Shown: positions 2 to 17,807, counted from the stretch's first letter. The stretch is DNA of 64,000 nt from Gammaproteobacteria bacterium (GCA_965222155.1 CBDCTH010000012.1:3392001-3456000); one strand, 5' to 3'. A program made the numbers and translations. Notes: generated by a model from the letters alone, not told the origin.

Positions 2-760
2 ACGCATGTTTCGGTGGTCTATTGCGAAACCACGTCGGGGATCGTGAATCCCATTGCCGATATCGCTGAGGTGGTTGCAAGGCACGGGCGCGGGTTGCTG
101 ATTGATGCCGTCAGCGCATTTGGCGCACTGCCGCTGAGCGCCGTTGACATACCGTTTGACGCACTGGCCGCCTCTGCCAACAAGTGTCTTGAAGGTGTTC
201 CCGGTATGGGGTTTGTTATTGCGGCAAGGGACTCCTTCCGGCACACCGAGGGCAATGCCCACTCGTTGAGTCTCGACCTTCATGCTCAATGGCAATACAT
301 GAAGACTAACGGTCAATGGCGGTTTACCCCTCCTACCCATTGTCTGCTGGCGCTGGACCAGGCCCTGCGGGAACTTGAAGAAGAGGGCAGTGTTCCGGGA
401 CGTCGCAGCCGTTACGAAGATAATTGCCGGGTGCTTGTCAATGGGATGCGTGATTTGGGTTTTCAAACGTTGTTACCCGATGAATTACAGGCGCCTGTCA
501 TAGTGACTTTTCTCACGCCGGGTGATAAGTCGTTCAGCTTTCCGGAGTTTTATCGGCGTTTAAATGCCCTCGGCTACGTGATTTATCCAGGCAAATTAAC
601 GTGCGCTGATAGCTTCAGGATCGGTTGTATCGGCCATATCGTTGCGGAACAAATGGCCGCCGCAGTAATCGCGGTTGAACAGGTATTGCGGGAGATGAGC
701 GTCGAGGATTGTGGCCCCGGGAACAATAATTCACCACTGCGCTCCAGCACGGGTCGTTGA
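2..760 (+). CDS. phnW: 2-aminoethylphosphonate-pyruvate transaminase, 5' end outside window
   Basis: THVSVVYCETTSG, IDAVSAFG, SANKCLEGVPG (PLP Lys), QWRFTPPTH and IYPGKLT motifs typical of PhnW; frame is open back to base 2. Confidence 0.9.
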   Translation, partial: THVSVVYCETTSGIVNPIADIAEVVARHGRGLLIDAVSAFGALPLSAVDIPFDALAASANKCLEGVPGMGFVIAARDSFRHTEGNAHSLSLDLHAQWQYMKTNGQWRFTPPTHCLLALDQALRELEEEGSVPGRRSRYEDNCRVLVNGMRDLGFQTLLPDELQAPVIVTFLTPGDKSFSFPEFYRRLNALGYVIYPGKLTCADSFRIGCIGHIVAEQMAAAVIAVEQVLREMSVEDCGPGNNNSPLRSSTGR

Positions 761-805
761 TGAATCAGGATTTCAGTTCACCTTCCAGACATCTCCTGTG
801 CGGAG

Positions 806-2347
806 GTGTTCGAAAAAATCACCTTTACCAAACTTATAATGATGCCTGATAACACTGGAAATTCACCCATTACAAATCCTGCCCAGTTACCGGCGTCGCC
901 CGGCACGAGACCGGCATGGGACATATCCGACCTGCCCGCTCCGCCCGATTTCAATTTCCGCAACATTGTCAGGATTATCGGGCCGGGCGCCATAGTCTTG
1001 TCCATGTCCATAGGCCTGGGGGAGTGGGTACTGGGCCCGCTGGTGGTTACGCAGTACGGATTCACCATGCTGTGGGTGGTAACCGTCGCCATTATTTTAC
1101 AACTCGCCCTCAACCTGGAATTTATTCGTTATACGGTCTATACGGGCGAACCGGTGATTAATGGATTTTTGCGGCTCGGCCCTCATCCGCTGTTCTGGGG
1201 AGGGGTATACATCCTGTTGACGTTGTTTCATGCCGGCTGGCCGGCCTGGGCTGCAGCTTCCGCGGCGCCGTTATTCGCCGGTTTTACCGGCCATTTGCCG
1301 GGACCGGGTGATGAATCGGTCATGCGCTGGCTGGGGATCATGAACCTGTTGATTTGCGCCGCTATAGTTGCAGTCGGCGGGAAGGTCGAGCGTACCCTGG
1401 AAATAATCAACTGGTTTATGGTGTTATTCGTGTTTGGTTTTTTACTTTTCGTATGTGTGTTGATCGTACCTGCGGAAACCTGGTGGGCGGGCCTCCTGGG
1501 CTTCTTCGGGATGACGCCCGGGTTTGAATTCCTGCTCATCCCGGAAGACGTCAGTTGGATACTGATCGGTGGGTTCGCCGCATTCGCCGGGGCGGGCGGC
1601 ATGGCCAATCTCACCGTAAGTAATTATATGCGGGACAAAGGGATAGGCATGGGTAGCAAGGTGGGATATATTTCGACGCTGATTGGCGGCAGGAAGGTTG
1701 CCGTATCGCCCATCGGCTGTGTATTTCCTGCGAACGAAGCCAACCTGCAACGCTGGCGGGTCTGGTGGCAGTATGTGCGTTGTGATCAAATCCTTGTCTG
1801 GGCCGCGGGTTGTTTCGTCGGCATGTTTCTGAACTGTATACTGGCGGCGCATATTATTCCTGCCGGGACGGAATTGAGTGGCTTGTCCATCGGCGCCTTC
1901 CAGGCTGAATATCTGGCCCGGAAGGAAGGCGCCTTACTGGGTTTCGTCACCCTGGTAAACGGTTTCTGGATTCTGTTCGGCAGCCAGTTGGTCACCATTG
2001 ACCTGATGGCGCGTATCAACACTGATCTTATCTGGAGCATGAGTGAGCGCGTCAGGCGCATTACCGGCAACGATATCCGGCGCCTGTATTATTTTCTGCT
2101 GATTACTTTTGTACTGTGGGGATGTATTGCCATCAACCTGGCACAACCTAAAGCGCTGGTGCTGATTTCCTCCAATGTCGCAGGGTTTATCCTGGTCGTC
2201 AGCGCCGTTCATATCCTGATACTCAACCACAAGGCCCTGCCGCGGGCCGTCAGAAGCCCCTGCTGGGCGAGGGGCCTGGTCGCCTGTACGGCTTTGTTTT
2301 ACGGATTCTTCTTTGTGCAGAACCTGCTTGAACTGTTGGGATGGTAG
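806..2347 (+). CDS. Nramp/APC-superfamily membrane transporter
   Basis: Many hydrophobic segments; GPGAIVLSMSIGLGEW and RYTVYTGE motifs; start may be ATG 839/842. Confidence 0.7.
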   Translation: MFEKITFTKLIMMPDNTGNSPITNPAQLPASPGTRPAWDISDLPAPPDFNFRNIVRIIGPGAIVLSMSIGLGEWVLGPLVVTQYGFTMLWVVTVAIILQLALNLEFIRYTVYTGEPVINGFLRLGPHPLFWGGVYILLTLFHAGWPAWAAASAAPLFAGFTGHLPGPGDESVMRWLGIMNLLICAAIVAVGGKVERTLEIINWFMVLFVFGFLLFVCVLIVPAETWWAGLLGFFGMTPGFEFLLIPEDVSWILIGGFAAFAGAGGMANLTVSNYMRDKGIGMGSKVGYISTLIGGRKVAVSPIGCVFPANEANLQRWRVWWQYVRCDQILVWAAGCFVGMFLNCILAAHIIPAGTELSGLSIGAFQAEYLARKEGALLGFVTLVNGFWILFGSQLVTIDLMARINTDLIWSMSERVRRITGNDIRRLYYFLLITFVLWGCIAINLAQPKALVLISSNVAGFILVVSAVHILILNHKALPRAVRSPCWARGLVACTALFYGFFFVQNLLELLGW

Positions 2348-4313: not shown

Positions 4314-4601
4314 GGGAGGATTGGTGATTATCCATACTCCCGTCTGTAAAGTCACCGCTTTCCACGGCCAGAACAGAATTGCCGCCGCTCCAGACCCAAA
4401 GCGGTTCGTCAGGCACTTTGATTTTTGCCCACTGACCCGGCAGCAGTTCAATCCCCGTTTCGTCAGTTGGGGCATTGGCTGCGTTATTTTTCGCAAGACT
4501 CTAGTAACGGACTGATTGCCTGAACGGTATACTTTATTAATTTTCCGGCTGTTTTATAATCAACAATCCCAATCATGATCAGGAGTTTAAGGAGACATGT
4601 T

Positions 4602-5183
4602 ATGACATTAAAACGTATTCTGTGTATCGCCCTGCTTTCTTCCACCTTTTTAGTGCTGAGCAGAGGCGCCGTTGCGGCTGAATATGAAATTGATATCGAA
4701 GGTATGCACGCGGCGATCCAGTTCCGAATCATTCACCTGGGCTACAGTGTTTTGACCGGTCGCTTTAATGACTTCGGCGGCAGCTTCAGCTGGGATAAAG
4801 ACAACCCGGGCGCCGCATCGATTAATGTGACGATTAAAACTGCCAGTTTCGATTCAAATCATGCGGAACGGGATAAGCACCTCCGGGAAGCGGATTTTCT
4901 GGACGTGGAAAAATACCCGGAAGCGACCTTCAAGAGCACGAAGTACAATGGCGATGCCGGCGGCGGCAAACTGGAGGGTATATTGACCCTGCACGGCGTC
5001 AGCAAACCCATCACGATAGATGTGGCATATATCGGCGAAGGGGATGATCCCTGGGGCGGTTACCGCGCCGGTTTTGAGGGTAAGGTAACTTTGCGCCGTT
5101 CGGATTTCGGCATGATGTATGAGCTCGGCCCCAGGTCGGATGAGATGGAACTGGACCTGTTTATTGAAGGAGTCAGGAAATAA
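4602..5183 (+). CDS. yceI: YceI-family periplasmic lipid/polyisoprenoid-binding protein
   Basis: Signal peptide; HLGYS..GRFNDF, RDKHLR..DF, LTLHGV and DPWGGYRAGFEG; AAGGAGA RBS. Confidence 0.92.
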   Translation: MTLKRILCIALLSSTFLVLSRGAVAAEYEIDIEGMHAAIQFRIIHLGYSVLTGRFNDFGGSFSWDKDNPGAASINVTIKTASFDSNHAERDKHLREADFLDVEKYPEATFKSTKYNGDAGGGKLEGILTLHGVSKPITIDVAYIGEGDDPWGGYRAGFEGKVTLRRSDFGMMYELGPRSDEMELDLFIEGVRK

Positions 5184-5190
5184 CAAAAAA

Positions 5191-5215
5191 GGGGACAGAT
5201 TTCAAATCTGTCCCC
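5191..5215. repeat. REP-like palindrome GGGGACAGATTTNAAATCTGTCCCC (copy 1 of 5)
   Basis: Perfect palindrome; other copies at 7474, 27751, 45828, 48747. Confidence 0.9.
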
Positions 5216-5290
5216 GGCGCTCCCGGCATTCGTCGGAATGACAGGAGCGCCGGGGAATAGGGTAATCTGTGGACAAATTCTGATGAAATC

Positions 5291-5848
5291 ATGGGCTGGT
5301 CCATGCTGATAAAAAATACACCCGCCCGTTTCGGCCTGTTCAGTAAACTGCTGCACTGGCTTATTGCCATTCTCATCCTTGGCCTGATCTGGTTGGGCTG
5401 GTACATGGTGGATCTGACTTACTATGACAAGTGGTATAACGATTCGCTGCATTACCATAAATCCCTGGGTATCCTGGCGCTGGCCCTGGCACTGGTCAAG
5501 ATCGGCTGGCAACAATATACGCCTGCGTCTGGACCATTAGCCGGCTTGCAATCATGGGAAAGGAGCGGGGCAAAGTTCATGCACTATGTTTTATGGGGCA
5601 TGATGTTATTAATTCCCGTTACCGGTTACCTCATTTCCACTTCCGCTGGAAAACCCATCCAATTGTTCAACTGGTTTGCACTGCCCGCCGTCATTGATGT
5701 GGATGAGGGACTCAGGGATCTCGCCATAACCGTCCACTATTACCTGGCATACGCCACCCTGTTCCTGGTTGTGGGGCACGCCGGCGCCGCGTTAAAACAT
5801 CACTTCATCAACAGGGACGACACTCTCAAACGCATGCTATGGAAATAA
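5291..5848 (+). CDS. Cytochrome b561 (YceJ-like)
   Basis: LHW, HKSLG, H and HAGAALKHHF heme ligands; adjacent to yceI. Confidence 0.9.
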   Translation: MGWSMLIKNTPARFGLFSKLLHWLIAILILGLIWLGWYMVDLTYYDKWYNDSLHYHKSLGILALALALVKIGWQQYTPASGPLAGLQSWERSGAKFMHYVLWGMMLLIPVTGYLISTSAGKPIQLFNWFALPAVIDVDEGLRDLAITVHYYLAYATLFLVVGHAGAALKHHFINRDDTLKRMLWK

Positions 5849-11909: not shown

Positions 11910-12227
11910 ATGACCTGGAAGGTCACATTTTTCAATCTCAAGGTTAAGGAGGAGACTTTAAACTTCCCGGATGGGATATTGGCCAACCTTCTCCACATCC
12001 TGGAAATTATTGAAGAATTTGGTCCAAATGCAGGAAAACCATATACGGCTTCAATGGGTCAGGGTCTTTTCGAAATACGGGCAAGAGGAAAAGAAGGTAT
12101 AGGCCGCTCCCTGTTTTGTACTCTCAAAGGTAAAGAAATAATTATCCTGAATTCCTTTATAAAGAAAACGCAAAAGACTCCTAAAAAAGAGATCGATATA
12201 GCCCGCAAACGCATGAAGGAAATATAA
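11910..12227 (+). CDS. RelE/ParE-family (Gp49-like) toxin
   Basis: GLFEIRARGKEGIGR and FIKKTQKTPKKEI. Confidence 0.9.
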   Translation: MTWKVTFFNLKVKEETLNFPDGILANLLHILEIIEEFGPNAGKPYTASMGQGLFEIRARGKEGIGRSLFCTLKGKEIIILNSFIKKTQKTPKKEIDIARKRMKEI

Positions 12228-12228
12228 A

Positions 12229-12534
12229 ATGGCAAGACCAACGCTCAAATCATTCAAAGCAGAAGCATTTAAGAAAAAAGGAGTAAAAGAAGAGTATGTT
12301 GAACTTGCTCCTGCTTATGAAGTTCGCAAAAAACTAATTGCCTTGCGTCAAAAAGCCGGCTATACGCAAGAACAGATAGCAGAAAAACTCCATACCAGCA
12401 AAAGCAATATTTCTCGTTTGGAGAGCGTTAATTCTAATATTTCTCCAAAGCTATCCACCATTACAGATTATGCTGAAGCAATGGGCTACAAGCTGAAAAT
12501 AGATTTTGTTCCATCAAGGCGTTCCGATACATAA
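12229..12534 (+). CDS. XRE HTH antitoxin
   Basis: TQEQIAEKLHTSKSNISRLE..P.LST; 1 bp after the toxin. Confidence 0.9.
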   Translation: MARPTLKSFKAEAFKKKGVKEEYVELAPAYEVRKKLIALRQKAGYTQEQIAEKLHTSKSNISRLESVNSNISPKLSTITDYAEAMGYKLKIDFVPSRRSDT

Positions 12535-12546
12535 TAACCTGTTGTT

Positions 12547-13095
12547 CTACAGGTTTTGTTTTAAATCGTCGACCGGCTTCAGCCAGTCCTCATCCAGGCT
12601 GACCCGCGTCTTGCCCCAGCCTTCCTTGTAGTTGCAGAGGATCTGCTGGGTCAGCGCCGTGTGGGTCAGTTTCCATCCACCATTAATCCTGACCATCTCG
12701 TCGTCGTAGAAACCGGCGACCCAGACCGGGTCATACTCTTTGGTCCTTGAATTATGCACTGTGGCGGCTTCGAACAGGTACCAGCGCGCCGTGGCCGACC
12801 GGCAGTCATCGGCAACCTCTATTCTTATGGGTATCAGGCAGTGGAACATCCAGGTGAACGGATTGACCTCCAGGAATGAGCGGATTTCGTCACGCCCCTT
12901 TAAAACCGTATCCCAGTTGGTAAATTCCATGACGCCGTCCTCCGTATACAGGTCTACGAACATATCGATATCCATCTGGGGATCGGCAGCGACCGCAGAA
13001 CGCTGTTTCAAGTGCCTGATTTCCTCCATGGCTTCCAGTCTTTCCAGTCGTTTCGACAACTCGTCGATTTTGTGTGAATCACTCATGGCATTCAT
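12547..13095 (-). CDS. SnoaL/NTF2-like protein
   Basis: RLERLEAMEEIR, LYTEDG, GRDEIR, Y.DE...GGWKL. Confidence 0.85.
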   Translation of the reverse strand: MNAMSDSHKIDELSKRLERLEAMEEIRHLKQRSAVAADPQMDIDMFVDLYTEDGVMEFTNWDTVLKGRDEIRSFLEVNPFTWMFHCLIPIRIEVADDCRSATARWYLFEAATVHNSRTKEYDPVWVAGFYDDEMVRINGGWKLTHTALTQQILCNYKEGWGKTRVSLDEDWLKPVDDLKQNL

Positions 13096-13325
13096 CCATA
13101 TTCGCTACAACATATAAAATTCACGGAAACTATTGTATTTGTCTCCGGCAGAAATACTGTCAGTAACGTTTTTATAACACAGGCTGCAGCGTATCACCAG
13201 CAGACATAAATGCCAGAGGGATAACAGCGATTCTGCCCGGTTTGCGAATAGTTATTACCTGAACGAACTGATCGATCAGCGCACCATTATATCTTGATTT
13301 TACGAGTTAACACAACTATACTGTT

Positions 13326-13790
13326 GTGTTAATGATTCCTCAGTTGATTGATATTGGTAATGGGTGCCCTTGGCCTGTTTTACCCCCCGGGGTGCATAAG
13401 ACAACTTTAGGTGAGATTGATTCAAAATTTGCGTATACGCCCCACCGAAAGAAACTATTTACGGGCTTTCGTAATGCGGTATTAATTTTGAACCAGGCAG
13501 GTTGTAAGTCGATATACTTGGATGGCAGCTATACCACCGGAAAGAACCACCCAAATGATTTTGATGCCTGCTGGGATGCTTATGGTGTTGATCCGATGAA
13601 ACTCGACCCGATATTACTAGATTTTTCTAATAAACGAAGCGCACAGAAGAAAAAGTACGGCGGTGAATTATTTATTATCAGTACCTCCGCGAAACCTAGT
13701 ATTAGCTTTTTGGATTTTTTTCAGACTGATCGTTACACCGGTCATAGAAAAGGGATCTTGTTTTTGGACTTAAGTTTATCTACGCCATGA
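13326..13790 (+). CDS. DUF6932-like protein (pol-beta nucleotidyltransferase-like)
   Basis: LPPGVH, YLDGSYTT.K..PNDFD and FLDFFQTDR..RKGI. Confidence 0.75.
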   Translation: MLMIPQLIDIGNGCPWPVLPPGVHKTTLGEIDSKFAYTPHRKKLFTGFRNAVLILNQAGCKSIYLDGSYTTGKNHPNDFDACWDAYGVDPMKLDPILLDFSNKRSAQKKKYGGELFIISTSAKPSISFLDFFQTDRYTGHRKGILFLDLSLSTP

Positions 13791-13806
13791 ATGAAGAGAA
13801 CTTGCA

Positions 13807-15081
13807 ATGATTACAAATGAACGACAATTCAAGATCGCTAAAGCACAAATGGAGAAGTTCAAATTGTCAATTGCCACTTTCGATATAGAAGAACTTGTTG
13901 GATGTGGCACAGATCGCCTTATGGCACAGGCACAGTTAGATCAGTTACGGAGTGAATACGAGATACTACTTGAGCAAATTATGGACTATGAACGTCTATC
14001 TTCAGGCGAACAGAAAGAATTTGAGATGCGATCACTTCAGGATTTACCTGTCGCGCTCATCAAGGCTAGGATTGTAAGTAACTGGACACAAAAACAGTTT
14101 GCTGAGGTACTTGGTGTTAAAGAACAACAAGTTCAACGCTATGAAGCTGAAATGTATAAATCAGCAAATCTTACAACTTTGTCACGCATGGCTGAAATAC
14201 TTGGTTTAGATATACCCACTCACGTTGTAATGTCATCCGTTAGAGATGGGTCAGTTGTAGGTATTTCCAAGAATCTACCAATCACTGAAATGTATAAAAG
14301 AGGATGGTTTGAAGACTTCTCGGGAACCTTAAGAGAAGCGAAAAAAAGTTATAGAGAGTTGATTGAGCAGTTGTATATCAATTCTGGATATACTCATGAT
14401 CAAATTGCCTTGCATCGAAAAAAAGTAAGATTGAGTAGTAATATTAATGAAGATGCGTTAACTGCATGGCATATACGAATTCTTTGTTTAACAAACAAAC
14501 AAAAGCTGTCACGGACGTTCAATCATAATGTCATATCGCAAGACTGGTTCCGAGAATTAGCAAAACTCAGTCGTTTCCCGGAGGGTCCTTTACTGGCTAG
14601 GGACTGGTTGCTGGAAAGCGGGATTTACTTTGTTATCGAACCACACCTTCCGCAAACTTATCTTGATGGGGGTGCATTGAGACATCCTAGTGGTGCGCCG
14701 GTAGTTGCCCTTACTATCCGTTATGACCGGTTGGATAATTTTTGGTTTGTTCTCTTTCATGAGCTGTCTCACATCCATCTTCATTTTCAATCGGAGCAAG
14801 ATACTGATTTTTTTGATGACTCAGAAGTGAAGTCTAACGACATCGAGTTGGAAGCAGATGAACATGCACTCAGCGCATTGGTGCCCCCAGAAATGTGGGA
14901 TAACTGTTTATCGAGGTTTAGCTTAAATACAGAGACAGTTCGCATAGAAGCAGAACAATTCCAAATACATCCATCCTTAATTGCTGGCCGAATACGTCAT
15001 GAACAACAGAACTTTAGTGTTTTAAATGATGTGATTGGTTACGGTGAAGTGTCACGCAGTTTTGAGGGATGGATGCTTTAA
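13807..15081 (+). CDS. Helical hairpin + XRE HTH + ImmA/IrrE-type metallopeptidase fusion
   Basis: MITNERQ N-terminus; WTQKQFAEVLGVKEQQVQRYE HTH; LDNFWFVLFHELSH (HExxH); ELEAD. Confidence 0.85.
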   Translation: MITNERQFKIAKAQMEKFKLSIATFDIEELVGCGTDRLMAQAQLDQLRSEYEILLEQIMDYERLSSGEQKEFEMRSLQDLPVALIKARIVSNWTQKQFAEVLGVKEQQVQRYEAEMYKSANLTTLSRMAEILGLDIPTHVVMSSVRDGSVVGISKNLPITEMYKRGWFEDFSGTLREAKKSYRELIEQLYINSGYTHDQIALHRKKVRLSSNINEDALTAWHIRILCLTNKQKLSRTFNHNVISQDWFRELAKLSRFPEGPLLARDWLLESGIYFVIEPHLPQTYLDGGALRHPSGAPVVALTIRYDRLDNFWFVLFHELSHIHLHFQSEQDTDFFDDSEVKSNDIELEADEHALSALVPPEMWDNCLSRFSLNTETVRIEAEQFQIHPSLIAGRIRHEQQNFSVLNDVIGYGEVSRSFEGWML

Positions 15082-15113
15082 TGGCAGTAACGAAAAATAT
15101 ATAGCGTCTTGAT

Positions 15114-16181
15114 ATGTATGTACCCATACTGAAATGGCGTCAAGGTGAGTATTTGGCATTAGAGCGTCTACCTAATGATGTAAAAGAATGCGTAATGCCA
15201 CTAATTGAGGTGCCACCGTTGGAATGGGATTTTGAAAAAGGCCAATACGCAAAAAACATCGATGAACATTTGAAACTTTTTATAACAAGATTTATAAAGA
15301 AATGGGGAAAGAGAAAGGCTTTTATAGATCTCCACCTGATTGATCCTACTTCACGTATGGTCAATGGAGTGCATCCGCTAACGTATGTCTTCGTGGAGGC
15401 ACTTAAAAATGAGTTGGAAGTAATCCCGGTGACGGGTATAAACAGGGGCACCGATTACCAACGCGCAGTAAAAAAAAGCATTGGTCAATTCAGCAATGGC
15501 GTCTGCTTACGTTTATCCATTAATGATGTGCTCAAACTATCACAAATGAATCGTTTGGATACATTTACGCACTATCATTCAATAGAATTTAGTGAACTGG
15601 ATGTTGTGCTAGATTTGGAGGCCCCAGATTTTAATCCTATTACGCAATTTGCACGGTTATTGCACAATCAGATTCAAAATCTGTCAGAAATAGAACACGT
15701 TCGAAGTTTCACAATAATCGGGTCGGCTTTTCCAAAGTCAATGGATCAATTAAGTATAGGTGCTCAAATTATCGAACGCTCAGAATGGAATCTGTATAGG
15801 GAATATTGTGATCGATTGACATCAGTGGAGAGAAAGCCACAATTTGGTGATTACGCCATTTCCCATCCTGCCTTGTTACAGTTGGATATGCGATTAATCA
15901 AGCCGGCTGCAAGTTTGCGATATACAATTGACGGTGGATGGTATATCCATAAGGGGACAAACGTGCGTGATAATGGTTTTTCGCAGTATAGAAATATATG
16001 TTTAAAACTGATGAAGTCGCGACATTTCCAAGGCGGAACTTATTCACCAGGTGATAAATACATTAAGGAATGTGGTGAAGGGGCTGCGTCTACTGGAAAT
16101 TTAACGGTATGGCGATGGGTGGGAACGAATCATCACATTACAAAGGTTGTAGATGACAGCGCCAATTTTGGCGTTCTTTAA
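15114..16181 (+). CDS. Beta-family protein
   Basis: YVPILKWRQGEYLAL, PLIEVP, FGDYAISHP, LRYT, SPGDKYI and W.WVGTNHHIT. Confidence 0.85.
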   Translation: MYVPILKWRQGEYLALERLPNDVKECVMPLIEVPPLEWDFEKGQYAKNIDEHLKLFITRFIKKWGKRKAFIDLHLIDPTSRMVNGVHPLTYVFVEALKNELEVIPVTGINRGTDYQRAVKKSIGQFSNGVCLRLSINDVLKLSQMNRLDTFTHYHSIEFSELDVVLDLEAPDFNPITQFARLLHNQIQNLSEIEHVRSFTIIGSAFPKSMDQLSIGAQIIERSEWNLYREYCDRLTSVERKPQFGDYAISHPALLQLDMRLIKPAASLRYTIDGGWYIHKGTNVRDNGFSQYRNICLKLMKSRHFQGGTYSPGDKYIKECGEGAASTGNLTVWRWVGTNHHITKVVDDSANFGVL

Positions 16182-16719
16182 GCTTGTTACTTATAGTTGA
16201 TTGTAGCTCTTCTATGGTAAACAAATCAATTATGGTCTTATAAAGAATCTTTCTTGGCTTTCTAAGCAGTGTGCCGGTGTAGCCCGCTGCTTCTAGTAAT
16301 TCAACTGCTTCATCTCTCCACAAGAGGGTTGTTAGTACGTATGGGTCGATAAGGGGGTTGTTGTATGCCTCACGGAATTTGTGAAAATACGTTCCTCCAC
16401 GCGGTCCTCTGGTTGCAACAATAAGACCCCACCAATCAGAGATCAGATTAAGCGACCGTTCTAAATGTTTTTTTGTAATCACTAAAGAAAGTTGATTGAA
16501 AACGGAATTATAGAGTTTCACTTGAGAGGCTAACCGGGTCAGGTCATCAGTATCAGATTTTATTTCGATCCCACTTAATTTACCGTTTATCACAGCAATA
16601 TCGATTCTCGATTTACCATGATAGATCCCTAATTCATCAACTACAAGTGCATTACTATTCTGATGGTAATAGCGAATTAACTTTTTATGTACGGCATAAC
16701 GTATATCATTTTCGTTCAT
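16138..16719 (-). CDS. sce7726-family protein (PD-(D/E)XK nuclease-like)
   Basis: E.DIR, VVDELG, RIDIAVING, EIKSD.D.L.RL..Q...Y..VF, WWGL, LLWRDE. Confidence 0.85.
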   Translation of the reverse strand: MNENDIRYAVHKKLIRYYHQNSNALVVDELGIYHGKSRIDIAVINGKLSGIEIKSDTDDLTRLASQVKLYNSVFNQLSLVITKKHLERSLNLISDWWGLIVATRGPRGGTYFHKFREAYNNPLIDPYVLTTLLWRDEAVELLEAAGYTGTLLRKPRKILYKTIIDLFTIEELQSTISNKLKERQNWRCHLQPL

Positions 16720-16724
16720 AATTA

Positions 16725-17807
16725 TTAATTGGTATTTGTTAACCTCGGCATTAACTGATCAGCGAAAAGCTGTTGCGTCCGCAGCGCCTGTTCCCGTTTC
16801 AGGCCGCCGTAATGGCTGATGATGATCAACTCATCAAACCCGAATTCTTCATATAATTGCTCCAGCTTTTTGCCCACGGAATCCGGCGTCCCCACGTAAA
16901 CGATGTCATTTTCGATCAATTCATCATAGCTCATTTTGCCGATACTCGGCATGAAGTCCATGGTATAGAACTTGTAACCGGCGTTCACCAGGCGTTCGCG
17001 CTCGGCATCGTTTGACGGCATAATCGTCAATTGAGGGGAGACGTTGTAACGGACAAAATTCACTACGGCTTCCCTGGCTTCCGCATGGGCGGTTGCCTCG
17101 TCTTCGTGCAGGTAAATCGCCTTGATAAAACCCACGCTGGGGGTGGAGCCTGCTTCGGCGCAGGCGTTCCGGTAAACGTCTACAGGGTCCTTGAAAGCGG
17201 CGCTGGGCGCCGGGCCGCCCACGACAATACCCCATTCATTTTGCGCGGCCATGGTAAACCACTTGGCGCTGGTGCCTACCTGGAAAATTTTGGGATGGGG
17301 CTTTTGCACGGGTTTGGGAACGACCGAAACATCTTTCACGTTGTAATACTTGCCTTCATAAGAGAAGGGGTCTTCGGTCCAGGCCTTTTGCAGAATTTCC
17401 AGGCACTCTACGTAGCGCCCCATGCTTTCTTCCATGGGCACGTCAGCCGGGCCGCATAACCAGGGATGCCCCCGGCCTACACCACATTCGATGCGTCCCT
17501 TCGTCAATATGTCAACCATCGCAATCTCACCGGCCAGGATCATGGGGTTATGCAGTGGCAAGGTATGACACAGGGCGCGAAACCGCAGGTTTTCAGTACG
17601 TTCCGCCAAGTGGGTGAATACCGCCAACGGATTGGGGTTGATCGCAAATTTTTCATAAAACGGGTGTTCCAGCGTGGTAAATACATGGAAACCGGTTTTA
17701 TCCGAGTGTACGGCGAGGGCCAGGACGTCTTCGATCAATTCGGCGTGGTCATGTCCCGGGGGACACTGAAATTCAACGTAAGTGCCAAAGCGTAGGGGTT
17801 CAGTCAT
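16725..17807 (-). CDS. LLM-class (luciferase-like) flavin-dependent monooxygenase
   Basis: EHPF, LPLHNP..LAGEIA.VD.L..GR...GVGRG and PKPVQKPHP. Confidence 0.92.
   Translation of the reverse strand: MTEPLRFGTYVEFQCPPGHDHAELIEDVLALAVHSDKTGFHVFTTLEHPFYEKFAINPNPLAVFTHLAERTENLRFRALCHTLPLHNPMILAGEIAMVDILTKGRIECGVGRGHPWLCGPADVPMEESMGRYVECLEILQKAWTEDPFSYEGKYYNVKDVSVVPKPVQKPHPKIFQVGTSAKWFTMAAQNEWGIVVGGPAPSAAFKDPVDVYRNACAEAGSTPSVGFIKAIYLHEDEATAHAEAREAVVNFVRYNVSPQLTIMPSNDAERERLVNAGYKFYTMDFMPSIGKMSYDELIENDIVYVGTPDSVGKKLEQLYEEFGFDELIIISHYGGLKREQALRTQQLFADQLMPRLTNTN

Follow-up and report, generated by a model that had tools for sequence, protein, structure and literature searches.

A DUF6932-led four-gene cassette of a gammaproteobacterium as a variant of the Beta/TIM-B defence family

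What are four tightly packed genes doing between a SnoaL_4 gene and a luciferase-like monooxygenase (LLM) gene, and do they make up a new kind of anti-phage system or a form of one already described? The block lies at positions 13,326–16,719 of a 64,000-nucleotide stretch from Gammaproteobacteria bacterium (GCA_965222155.1, CBDCTH010000012.1:3392001-3456000), which is called the window here and numbered from its first letter. It encodes a DUF6932 nucleotidyltransferase (NTase)-like protein (P1), a helix-turn-helix (HTH) protein with an M78/ImmA-type metallopeptidase domain (P2), a Beta protein (P3) and, on the opposite strand, a cII/sce7726-family protein (P4, called cII below). By comparison with tested relatives, on which this reading rests, the cassette is a variant within a known, widespread defence family and not a new kind of system. 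It corresponds to the B/C core of PD-lambda-2 joined to the convergent cII nuclease of phage P4 gop-beta-cII, with DUF6932 in place of HigB or Gop.

Gene content and layout

The cassette consists of four intact open reading frames (ORFs), and its gene content, order and motif integrity are established. The features are:

13294–13332, plus strand: promoter-like site, −35 TTGATT at 13294–13299, 17-nt spacer, −10 TATACT at 13317–13322
13326–13790, plus strand: ORF of gene 1 (P1), 154 aa, opening at GTG 13326
13332–13790, plus strand: gene 1 (P1) from its likely start, DUF6932 Pol-beta-type minimal nucleotidyltransferase-like protein (Pfam DUF6932, 5.7e-33)
13807–15081, plus strand: gene 2 (P2), 424 aa, with N-terminal helical arm (~1–75), Xre-type HTH (87–136), middle region and M78/ImmA-type metallopeptidase (HExxH at 318–322)
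15114–16181, plus strand: gene 3 (P3), 355 aa, Beta protein (TIM-B) with predicted TIM-barrel-like fold (Pfam Beta_protein, 5.4e-78; PADLOC PD-Lambda-2_C, 1.2e-51)
16138–16719, minus strand: gene 4 (P4), 193 aa, cII/sce7726-family PD-(D/E)xK nuclease-like protein (NCBIfam sce7726_fam, 1.8e-48; PADLOC 'cll' of gop_beta_cll, 6.7e-26)
16138–16181, both strands: dual-coding tail-to-tail overlap of 44 bp, Beta residues 342–355 (with invariant D348) against cII residues 180–193 (with invariant R183 and W186)

By ORF calling in the window, gaps of 16 bp and 32 bp separate P1 from P2 and P2 from Beta. GC content is 0.37–0.44 over 13000–16750 versus 0.52–0.58 on either side. A first-pass annotation, made from the bare sequence, had described the same four ORFs, gaps, 44-bp overlap and AT-richness, and its coordinates and composition are reproduced exactly. 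Its family assignments (NTase-like, now DUF6932; HTH with M78/ImmA peptidase; Beta; sce7726) hold in Pfam, NCBIfam and PADLOC. The motifs that it had called intact are all present and invariant among homologues: GS..K..P.D.D in P1 (G67-S68...K73..P76.D78.D80; 24 sequences), HExxH in P2 (H318, E319, H322 and also H326; 23 sequences) and D..EIK in cII (E29, D40, E52-I53-K54; 27 sequences).

Recurrence of the cassette across genomes

Beta relatives numbered 276 at E ≤ 1e-3 among 1679 candidates. Scanning one genome per species with a 21-sequence alignment located 243 Beta loci, and at the best 80 of these the presence of each gene was scored by ORF calling and jackhmmer searches seeded with the window proteins. 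All four genes, in the order and orientation of the window, are found at 61 of the 80, which places the four-gene layout far beyond chance; the two gene pairs do occur together elsewhere, rare co-occurrence being what the first-pass annotation had said would speak against its reading. These 61 complete loci are spread over what we take to be about 11 phyla (Gamma-/Alphaproteobacteria, Chloroflexota, Verrucomicrobiota, Planctomycetota, Fibrobacterota, Spirochaetota, Myxococcota, Sumerlaeota, Hydrogenedentota, Actinomycetota and Desulfobacterota). Spearman coefficients between the pairwise identities of the four proteins are 0.73–0.85 (59 complete loci plus the window, kin not being independent), and the sequences fit a cassette that is inherited as a unit.

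The incomplete loci among the best 80 comprise P2-P3-P4 (8), P3-P4 (10) and P2-P3 (1) forms, and 8 of these 19 lie too near a contig end for P1 to be judged (L017, L028, L029, L030, L034, L047, L055, L073). On inspection, L050 has a P1-like sequence inside a masked long ORF, making it a 62nd complete locus. Another gene, of 214 aa, occupies the first slot at L016, a shorter P2 is found without P1 at L062 and L068, and seven loci (L072, L074, L075, L077–L080) consist of Beta and cII without genes 1 and 2.

An unbiased sample of 401 genomes from the window's phylum contained DUF6932 in 23 genomes (25 loci), Beta in 10 (12 places) and sce7726 in 14, of which 10 were above the cut-off. Beta has an adjacent convergent sce7726 gene at 7 of its 12 places and a peptidase-type gene directly upstream at 8 of them. 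P2-like neighbours accompany DUF6932 at 5 of the 25 loci, and in this sample the DUF6932 four-gene form is confined to the window's own genome.

Other genes stand in the first position elsewhere. L120 is a canonical HigB-type PD-lambda-2 locus (A, 4.4e-27; B, 3.9e-184; then Beta). At four loci (L114–L117, in G262, G031, G120 and G060) Beta is preceded by a two-transmembrane (2TM) protein and a small M78 peptidase (165–182 aa; Peptidase_M78, 8.2e-24; capP, 8.9e-32), and at L119 by yet another first gene. Parts of the cassette are also found separately: HigB and HTH-peptidase pairs without Beta on plasmids, full-length PD-Lambda-2_B-type genes in seven sampled genomes that gave no Beta match (G017, G025, G057, G105, G136, G149, G160), and, in phage Rac-SA53, Beta and cII overlapping by 41 bp without upstream partners.

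The first gene at L114–L117 encodes a predicted membrane protein of 110–226 aa with an N-terminal hydrophobic stretch; convergent cII is present at two of these four loci, a form intermediate between P4 gop-beta-cII and PD-lambda-2. At L118 (G389:C6) a DUF4917 gene at 4477–5532 (PADLOC PDC-S21, 6.3e-119) is followed after 106 bp by an HTH-peptidase-Beta pair with neither a DUF6932 gene nor cII. The DUF4917 gene may be a further first-slot alternative or an independent neighbour.

Relation to known systems

PD-lambda-2, catalogued in PADLOC and DefenseFinder as PD-Lambda-2, is made up of a HigB-like component (A), a HigA-like Xre HTH protein with a C-terminal peptidase (B) and a third component related to a P4 antitoxin (C) (PMC9519451, Nat Microbiol 2022). 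In E. coli it acts as an abortive-infection defence in which B is toxic alone, A rescues and C is required (PMC9519451). The window shares with it a same-strand three-gene operon in which P2 fits B (4.4e-80) and Beta fits C. The first genes differ, A being HigB-like and P1 DUF6932/NTase-like: P1 has no match to the PADLOC PD-Lambda-2_A models even at E ≤ 10, whereas the true A protein at L120 matches four of them, best at 4.4e-27. The window also has a convergent cII, while the genome of the canonical-type locus L120 (G265) gave no sce7726 match.

The second tested relative, gop-beta-cII, protects against phages lambda and P1, and gop is toxic without beta (PMC9122126, which cites Ghisotti 1990 for the toxicity); its toxicity is triggered by phage orf184 (10.1101/2023.04.06.535777). 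In phage P4 (NC_001609) gop occupies 247–648, beta 651–1718 and, on the opposite strand, cII 1746–2540. That sce7726 corresponds to P4 cII had been put forward in the first-pass annotation, and it proved right: gene 4 matches the PADLOC 'cll' model, the RefSeq name of P4 cII is 'sce7726 family protein', and gene 4 scores 0.97 to the Phage_P4_cII clusters of the Atlas. The same holds for its proposal on synteny. In P4 and the window alike, a convergent cII/sce7726 gene comes after Beta, and the gene directly before Beta is of a toxic or effector type; the P1-P2 pair occupies the place of gop. The differences are that Gop, with 133 aa, is of membrane type and shows no significant Pfam, peptidase or NTase similarity; that P4 has no HTH-peptidase and the window no listed PADLOC gop match; that beta and cII are 27 bp apart in P4 and overlap in the window; and that P4 cII is longer (264 aa versus 193 aa). 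The P4-specific PADLOC 'beta' model matches the window Beta weakly (2.1e-5). We also considered Gop as a small M78 peptidase homologous to the P2 C-terminus and rejected this, Gop being a membrane-type protein of 133 aa with no significant Pfam match.

An account of the general architecture is found in section 33 of a computational preprint (bioRxiv 10.64898/2026.10.19.760177, 22 Oct 2026), where PF14350 is named 'TIM-B'. There, an effector, a metallopeptidase with or without HTH, TIM-B and a convergent overlapping restriction endonuclease (REase) follow one another, and the effector alternates among Gop 2TM, HigB, REase, 'the Pol-beta effector', GNAT, sirtuin, RES, caspase and 2TM-B. Like the first-pass annotation, the preprint raises the possibility of antisense coupling through the overlap; it proposes antagonism at the transcript level, takes TIM-B as a transglycosylase-like negative regulator, and compares the systems with DdrO-IrrE (10.64898/2026.10.19.760177). 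The window fits gene for gene: Beta core, Pol-beta-like first gene, HTH-peptidase and convergent overlapping nuclease. Neither DUF6932 nor PF22014 appears in the text of the preprint, figures and supplements apart, but its Pol-beta effector may correspond to DUF6932; section 33 makes no mention in its text of an operator, a leaderless promoter or a P1-P2 interface. The exact layout of the window may already be present in Fig. 5a of PMC9519451 or Fig. 6B of 10.64898/2026.10.19.760177.

The word 'undescribed', which the first-pass annotation had applied to the system, has thus to be given up, since the PD-lambda-2 components that genes 2 and 3 match, B and C, are already catalogued and tested, and the architecture is set out in section 33 of the preprint. 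Whether the layout coincides with a catalogued system has a divided answer, two of three PD-lambda-2 components matching and the first gene differing.

More distant likenesses were found to four groups of systems. In RosmerTA (RmrT/RmrA) a small gene of variable kind comes first and an 'antitoxin' with HTH and Zn-peptidase second (10.1101/2022.05.11.491447). P2 matches the RmrA models weakly (1.4e-9 and weaker), far below its match to PD-Lambda-2_B; RosmerTA comprises two genes and lacks Beta and cII, and the window has four genes. The best fold matches of P1, weak ones, are the MNT antitoxins of type VII MNT-HEPN systems, and no HEPN family was found in window genes 2–4 with Pfam or PADLOC. 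P1 also matches the A model of PDC-M63 (1.7e-11), and the second DUF6932 gene of the window genome stands in a two-gene pair, yet window genes 2–4 include no PDC-M63B match. In ImmR/ImmA, CapH/CapP and DdrO/IrrE an HTH repressor is paired with an M78 metallopeptidase; in the window the two are fused in one protein, P2.

P1, P2 and their predicted complex

The likely start of P1 is ATG 13332, not GTG 13326, because its homologues begin with 'MIP'. Among PADLOC models it matches PDC-M63A alone, and no RmrT model matched. The AlphaFold2 (AF2) model of P1 has a predicted local distance difference test (pLDDT) score of 93, and Foldseek searches against the Protein Data Bank (PDB) gave consistently Pol-beta-fold matches, with the MNT antitoxins of MNT-HEPN pairs (7aer, 6m6u) on top, all of them weak (best E 0.07, template-modelling (TM) score ~0.3). 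Atlas features point to NTP_transf_2/Polbeta clusters (0.81–0.83), as a lead only. Because the invariant GS...DxD motif joins these fold matches and the Atlas lead, P1 is probably an active Pol-beta-type nucleotidyltransferase. A literature search by the name DUF6932 found no paper.

The window genome holds a second DUF6932 gene, of 159 aa (G000:C12:945127-945564; L089:1468-1947), which overlaps by 4 bp a gene for a 333-aa partner (L089:1944-2945) with no Pfam or PADLOC match. The two look like a two-gene DUF6932 module.

In P2, Pfam finds HTH_3 (9.5e-10) and, weakly and below its cut-off, Peptidase_M78 (0.0021). The match to PADLOC PD-Lambda-2_B aligns residues 133–420 with model positions 109–397 of 402, and the N-terminal ~130 residues do not match the HigA-like N-terminus of that model. 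There are further PADLOC matches to capP (4.3e-8) and to several RmrA models (down from 1.4e-9 to 1e-6).

A structure model of P1 with P2 scored 0.83, versus 0.02 for the best control. Among solved complexes 58 of 80 attain that mark, among mismatched pairs 2 of 110, counts that apply only roughly here, our own alignments having been used. No fewer than 92% of contacts are shared between runs, with a partner pLDDT of 85 or more. On P2 the predicted interface takes in residues 6–53 and 107–119, covering a segment with invariant S49 and with invariant Y61 nearby; on P1 it takes in residues 13–16, 73–75, 85–104 and 116–139. The model supports binding of P1 to the N-terminal arm of P2 but does not show it. 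Because the predicted interface is the part of P2 that is unlike the HigA-like N-terminus of PD-Lambda-2_B, the P2 N-terminus appears to co-vary with the first gene, while the peptidase half stays PD-lambda-2-like.

A conserved palindrome upstream of P1

The promoter-like site upstream of P1 sits within a perfect inverted repeat with 10-bp arms, TTAACACAAC-N6-GTTGTGTTAA, at 13307–13332. The −10 box forms its loop, and its last base is the A of the P1 ATG at 13332. Across the 80 loci, 903,159 bases in all, the core ACACAA-N6-8-TTGTGT has 50 exact matches, against a chance expectation of ~0.2 (12 fixed bases, three spacings). In 40 of 50 assessable loci it ends 1–4 nt ahead of the P1 start, and six further loci have a core with one mismatch, judged by eye, at the same position. 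At L003 and L023 the core is found ~115 nt upstream of P1, and at L004 and L035 no core was found upstream of P1. In the 64-kb window it occurs once, at 13310. Conservation of the palindrome upstream of P1 is established. From its sequence and placement it is best read as a candidate operator of the P2 HTH, over a promoter that would give a leaderless P1 mRNA. No conserved promoter or operator was seen upstream of cII across lineages.

Beta, cII and their overlap

The AF2 model of Beta (pLDDT 91.7) retrieved generic TIM barrels with Foldseek (triosephosphate isomerase, aldolases, glycosidases, phospholipase D; E ~2e-4, TM ≤ 0.38), and 45 columns, many of them polar, are invariant among 21 sequences; D246, R260 and H340/H341 are examples of invariant residues. 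Given the TIM-barrel-like model and these columns, Beta has the look of an enzyme, not of an antitoxin that acts passively. No tRNA-guanine transglycosylase (TGT) was among the Foldseek top 50, and hhalign comparison of the Beta profile with 24 bacterial TGT sequences gave a probability of 0.1%, equal to that of unrelated controls. Profiles of P1, Beta and cII searched against PDB sequences retrieved nothing below E 0.1.

Convergence and overlap of cII with Beta are general features of these loci. In 79 of 79 assessable loci cII overlaps the 3′ end of Beta, by 32–119 bp (median 77); the sole locus of the 80 without cII, L068, has 21 bp of downstream sequence. In the window the cII ATG lies 5 nt past the LLM stop codon, and there is therefore no room for a cII promoter of its own outside LLM. 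The papers retrieved for sce7726 are, judged by title and abstract, all genome descriptions.

Insertion site and neighbourhood

The flanking features are:

12547–13095, minus strand: SnoaL_4 gene
13096–16724, no strand: segment between SnoaL and LLM relative to the congener empty site, by junction comparison
16725–17807, minus strand: LLM gene

The LLM site was compared among 10 loci (the window and nine loci from other genomes of the same genus) of 20 matching places. LLM directly adjoins SnoaL in 6 of the 9 congener loci (L126, L127, L128, L129, L131, L132), in agreement with the earlier impression that the block splits these two genes. The empty site measures ~5 nt from LLM stop to SnoaL ATG (L126, L127, L129, L131, L132). 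Because 13096 to ~13211 is common to longer intergenic variants in two congeners, the cassette-specific part is ~13212–16724. In the junction alignment the window departs from the empty-site sequence after ...ATGCCGAGGTTA in the LLM 3′ end, and the last LLM codons therefore differ, TNTN* in the window versus QKR* in empty-site congeners. By eye, this alignment revealed no target-site duplication, integrase or tRNA at the island borders. The block is an insertion, horizontally acquired.

The three remaining congeners differ from one another. At L134, in the same genome as L001, Beta and cII lie beside LLM as in the window, which puts the cassette at the same site in 1 of 9; at L133 no SnoaL is within reach of LLM; and L130 (G415:C5) has a different insert of ~680 bp between LLM and SnoaL, with a small minus-strand ORF. 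L128 carries ~70 extra bp in the interval. Small cargo may have landed repeatedly in the LLM-SnoaL interval. In the place of SnoaL, upstream of P1, L001 has a Mrr_cat restriction-endonuclease-like gene (171–1097, minus strand; 6.5e-7), and the island there may be larger than in the window.

At 47 of 56 related loci the cassette has a lower GC content than its flanks, and phage-integrase domains are found in 6 of the 108 nearest flanking ORFs. Flanking-ORF family tables covered the 25 commonest families only. Flank matches seen at single loci are Gabija GajA, type II/III methyltransferase, type IV restriction, a phospholipase effector of cyclic-oligonucleotide-based anti-phage signalling systems (CBASS), MzaA, AriA and DrmD. 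RefSeq plasmids carry the cassette too: on Rhizobium lentis p4 its genes, annotated as hypothetical, XRE family, beta family and sce7726 family, lie between a reverse transcriptase (RT)-helicase pair and an integrase. The defence-island context is suggestive rather than strong.

On an Acinetobacter pittii plasmid (L083; NZ_CP014478.1, 66713–68620) a copy of the cassette, with a small first gene and an ImmA/IrrE-type gene, is located within a Tn7-like element. The third gene has shrunk to a 200-bp ORF there, followed by an IS30-family transposase and blaNDM-1.

A working model and its alternatives

That the cassette belongs to the Beta/TIM-B defence family is very likely. We think it probable that the block is a complete four-gene, toxin-antitoxin (TA)-like abortive-infection cassette of this family, with P1 as effector, P2 as switch, Beta as regulator and cII as a second arm. 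Given family membership, the chances of P1 being the effector are about even, and its being the neutraliser of a toxic P2 is possible but doubtful. On the effector model, the P2 HTH would repress the operon at the palindrome around the −10 box, and the P1 mRNA would be leaderless, as the conserved operator suggests. P2 would hold P1 in a complex through its N-terminal helical arm and its HTH, the predicted contact being beside the P1 catalytic loop. The pattern of variable and constant genes points to P1 as an exchangeable effector that would nucleotidylate a cellular target, because the first slot holds HigB, 2TM proteins and, according to the preprint, GNAT, sirtuin and RES. The same pattern would make P2 an antitoxin-like switch whose M78 peptidase releases or activates P1 upon infection, and Beta a conserved enzyme-like regulator or sensor needed for defence. 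The cII nuclease may act as a second arm, its expression coupled to the operon via the obligatory 3′ overlap.

Several points weigh against this model. The experiments behind it were done on relatives. In PD-lambda-2 the toxic component is B and the antidote A (PMC9519451), which goes against an effector encoded by the first gene. By fold P1 comes closest, though weakly, to MNT antitoxins and not to NTase toxins, and the catalytic D78 and D80 lie outside the listed P1-P2 contacts, which include only their neighbours 73–75. PDC-M63AB, the sole tested DUF6932-containing candidate, gave no defence in its native host (10.1101/2024.12.20.629700). The transglycosylase-like character of Beta, which the preprint bases on structure comparison, was not reproduced here by Foldseek or hhalign. 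Neither an integrase nor any other defence gene is present in the window island, and around related loci ordinary genes prevail, integrase and defence genes being a minority. Rule-based callers, finally, may not report the locus, because P1 fails the PD-Lambda-2_A model.

Some of these points would suit a cassette of the same family with reversed roles, which we consider unlikely: P2 would be the toxic executor, like PD-lambda-2 B, and P1 an MNT-like neutraliser that binds P2 or nucleotidylylates its N-terminal arm in the manner of a type VII TA system, until infection removes P1 or the modification. PD-lambda-2 B is indeed toxic alone and rescued by the first gene (PMC9519451), and the predicted interface is placed beside the P1 catalytic loop, over the P2 segment with invariant S49 and near Y61. 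DUF6932 also stays first before varied second genes, a P2-like gene being next at only 5 of the 25 phylum-sample loci, and the second DUF6932 copy of the window genome has an unrelated partner. The likeness to 7aer and 6m6u, which head the P1 matches, is weak, however (E 0.07), and lacks a HEPN partner; the listed contacts do not include D78 and D80; and across Beta systems the first slot is filled by classical toxins (HigB, 2TM), suggesting an effector slot. An elaborated form of the switch, distinctly improbable in its entirety, would make DUF6932 the heart of a protease-gated device: the variant-specific P2 arm would clamp P1, which would either nucleotidylylate the arm, as a type VII-like lock on a protease, or be freed by P2 self-cleavage to nucleotidylate a cellular target, the leaderless, operator-embedded promoter would have been kept nearly to the letter across ~11 phyla, and the overlap would turn operon and cII into mutually exclusive back-up arms.

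The block could also be two uncoupled modules side by side, a RosmerTA-type DUF6932/HTH-peptidase pair and a Beta-cII pair. Each half does occur elsewhere without the other: HigB and HTH-peptidase pairs without Beta on plasmids, PD-Lambda-2_B-type genes in the seven genomes lacking a Beta match, and Beta-cII alone at the seven loci named above and in phage Rac-SA53; P2 has, besides, its weak RmrA matches (1e-9 to 1e-6). Gene order is constant and spacing tight at 61 of 80 loci from ~11 phyla; this and the correlated divergence of the four proteins make such independence very unlikely, as do the peptidase-type gene directly before Beta at 8 of 12 places in the unbiased phylum sample and the requirement for C (Beta) in defence by the A-B-C operon in E. 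coli (PMC9519451). Least likely of all is a selfish addiction or stabilisation module, a plain toxin-antitoxin with no role against phages. The TA-like architecture and apparent autoregulation of the operon would suit it, as would an island free of other defence genes with a classical HigB/HigA-like pair 800 bp away, and the absence of defence when PDC-M63AB was tested (10.1101/2024.12.20.629700). Both closest tested relatives protect against phages, though (PMC9519451, PMC9122126), a phage gene triggers gop-beta-cII (10.1101/2023.04.06.535777), and some related loci lie beside Gabija, restriction-modification, CBASS-effector, RT-helicase or integrase genes.

For PD-lambda-2 and gop-beta-cII anti-phage activity is proven. 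In our survey the E. coli and P4 models appear atypical: the form that dominates the 80 nearest Beta loci is the NTase-first four-gene cassette with overlapping cII. After the 2026 TIM-B preprint its gene content is unsurprising; the modest additions made here are a conserved operator, with what appears to be a leaderless promoter, and a predicted interface of P1 with P2. The cassette offers three handles, namely the conserved operator/promoter, a confidently predicted P1-P2 interface and three intact catalytic centres. In this form it suits a defined test of how Beta, peptidase and nuclease cooperate, and it opens no new category.

A neighbouring HigB/HigA-like islet

A second AT-rich islet lies at 11910–12534 of the window (GC 0.38–0.43), between SDR and SnoaL genes, and encodes a Gp49/HigB-like toxin (Pfam Gp49, 1.2e-26) and an Xre-HTH antitoxin. 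The pair was not found by these queries at L127, L128, L129, L131 and L132, the congener loci reaching that far; at congener locus L126 there is a copy with 94% identity.

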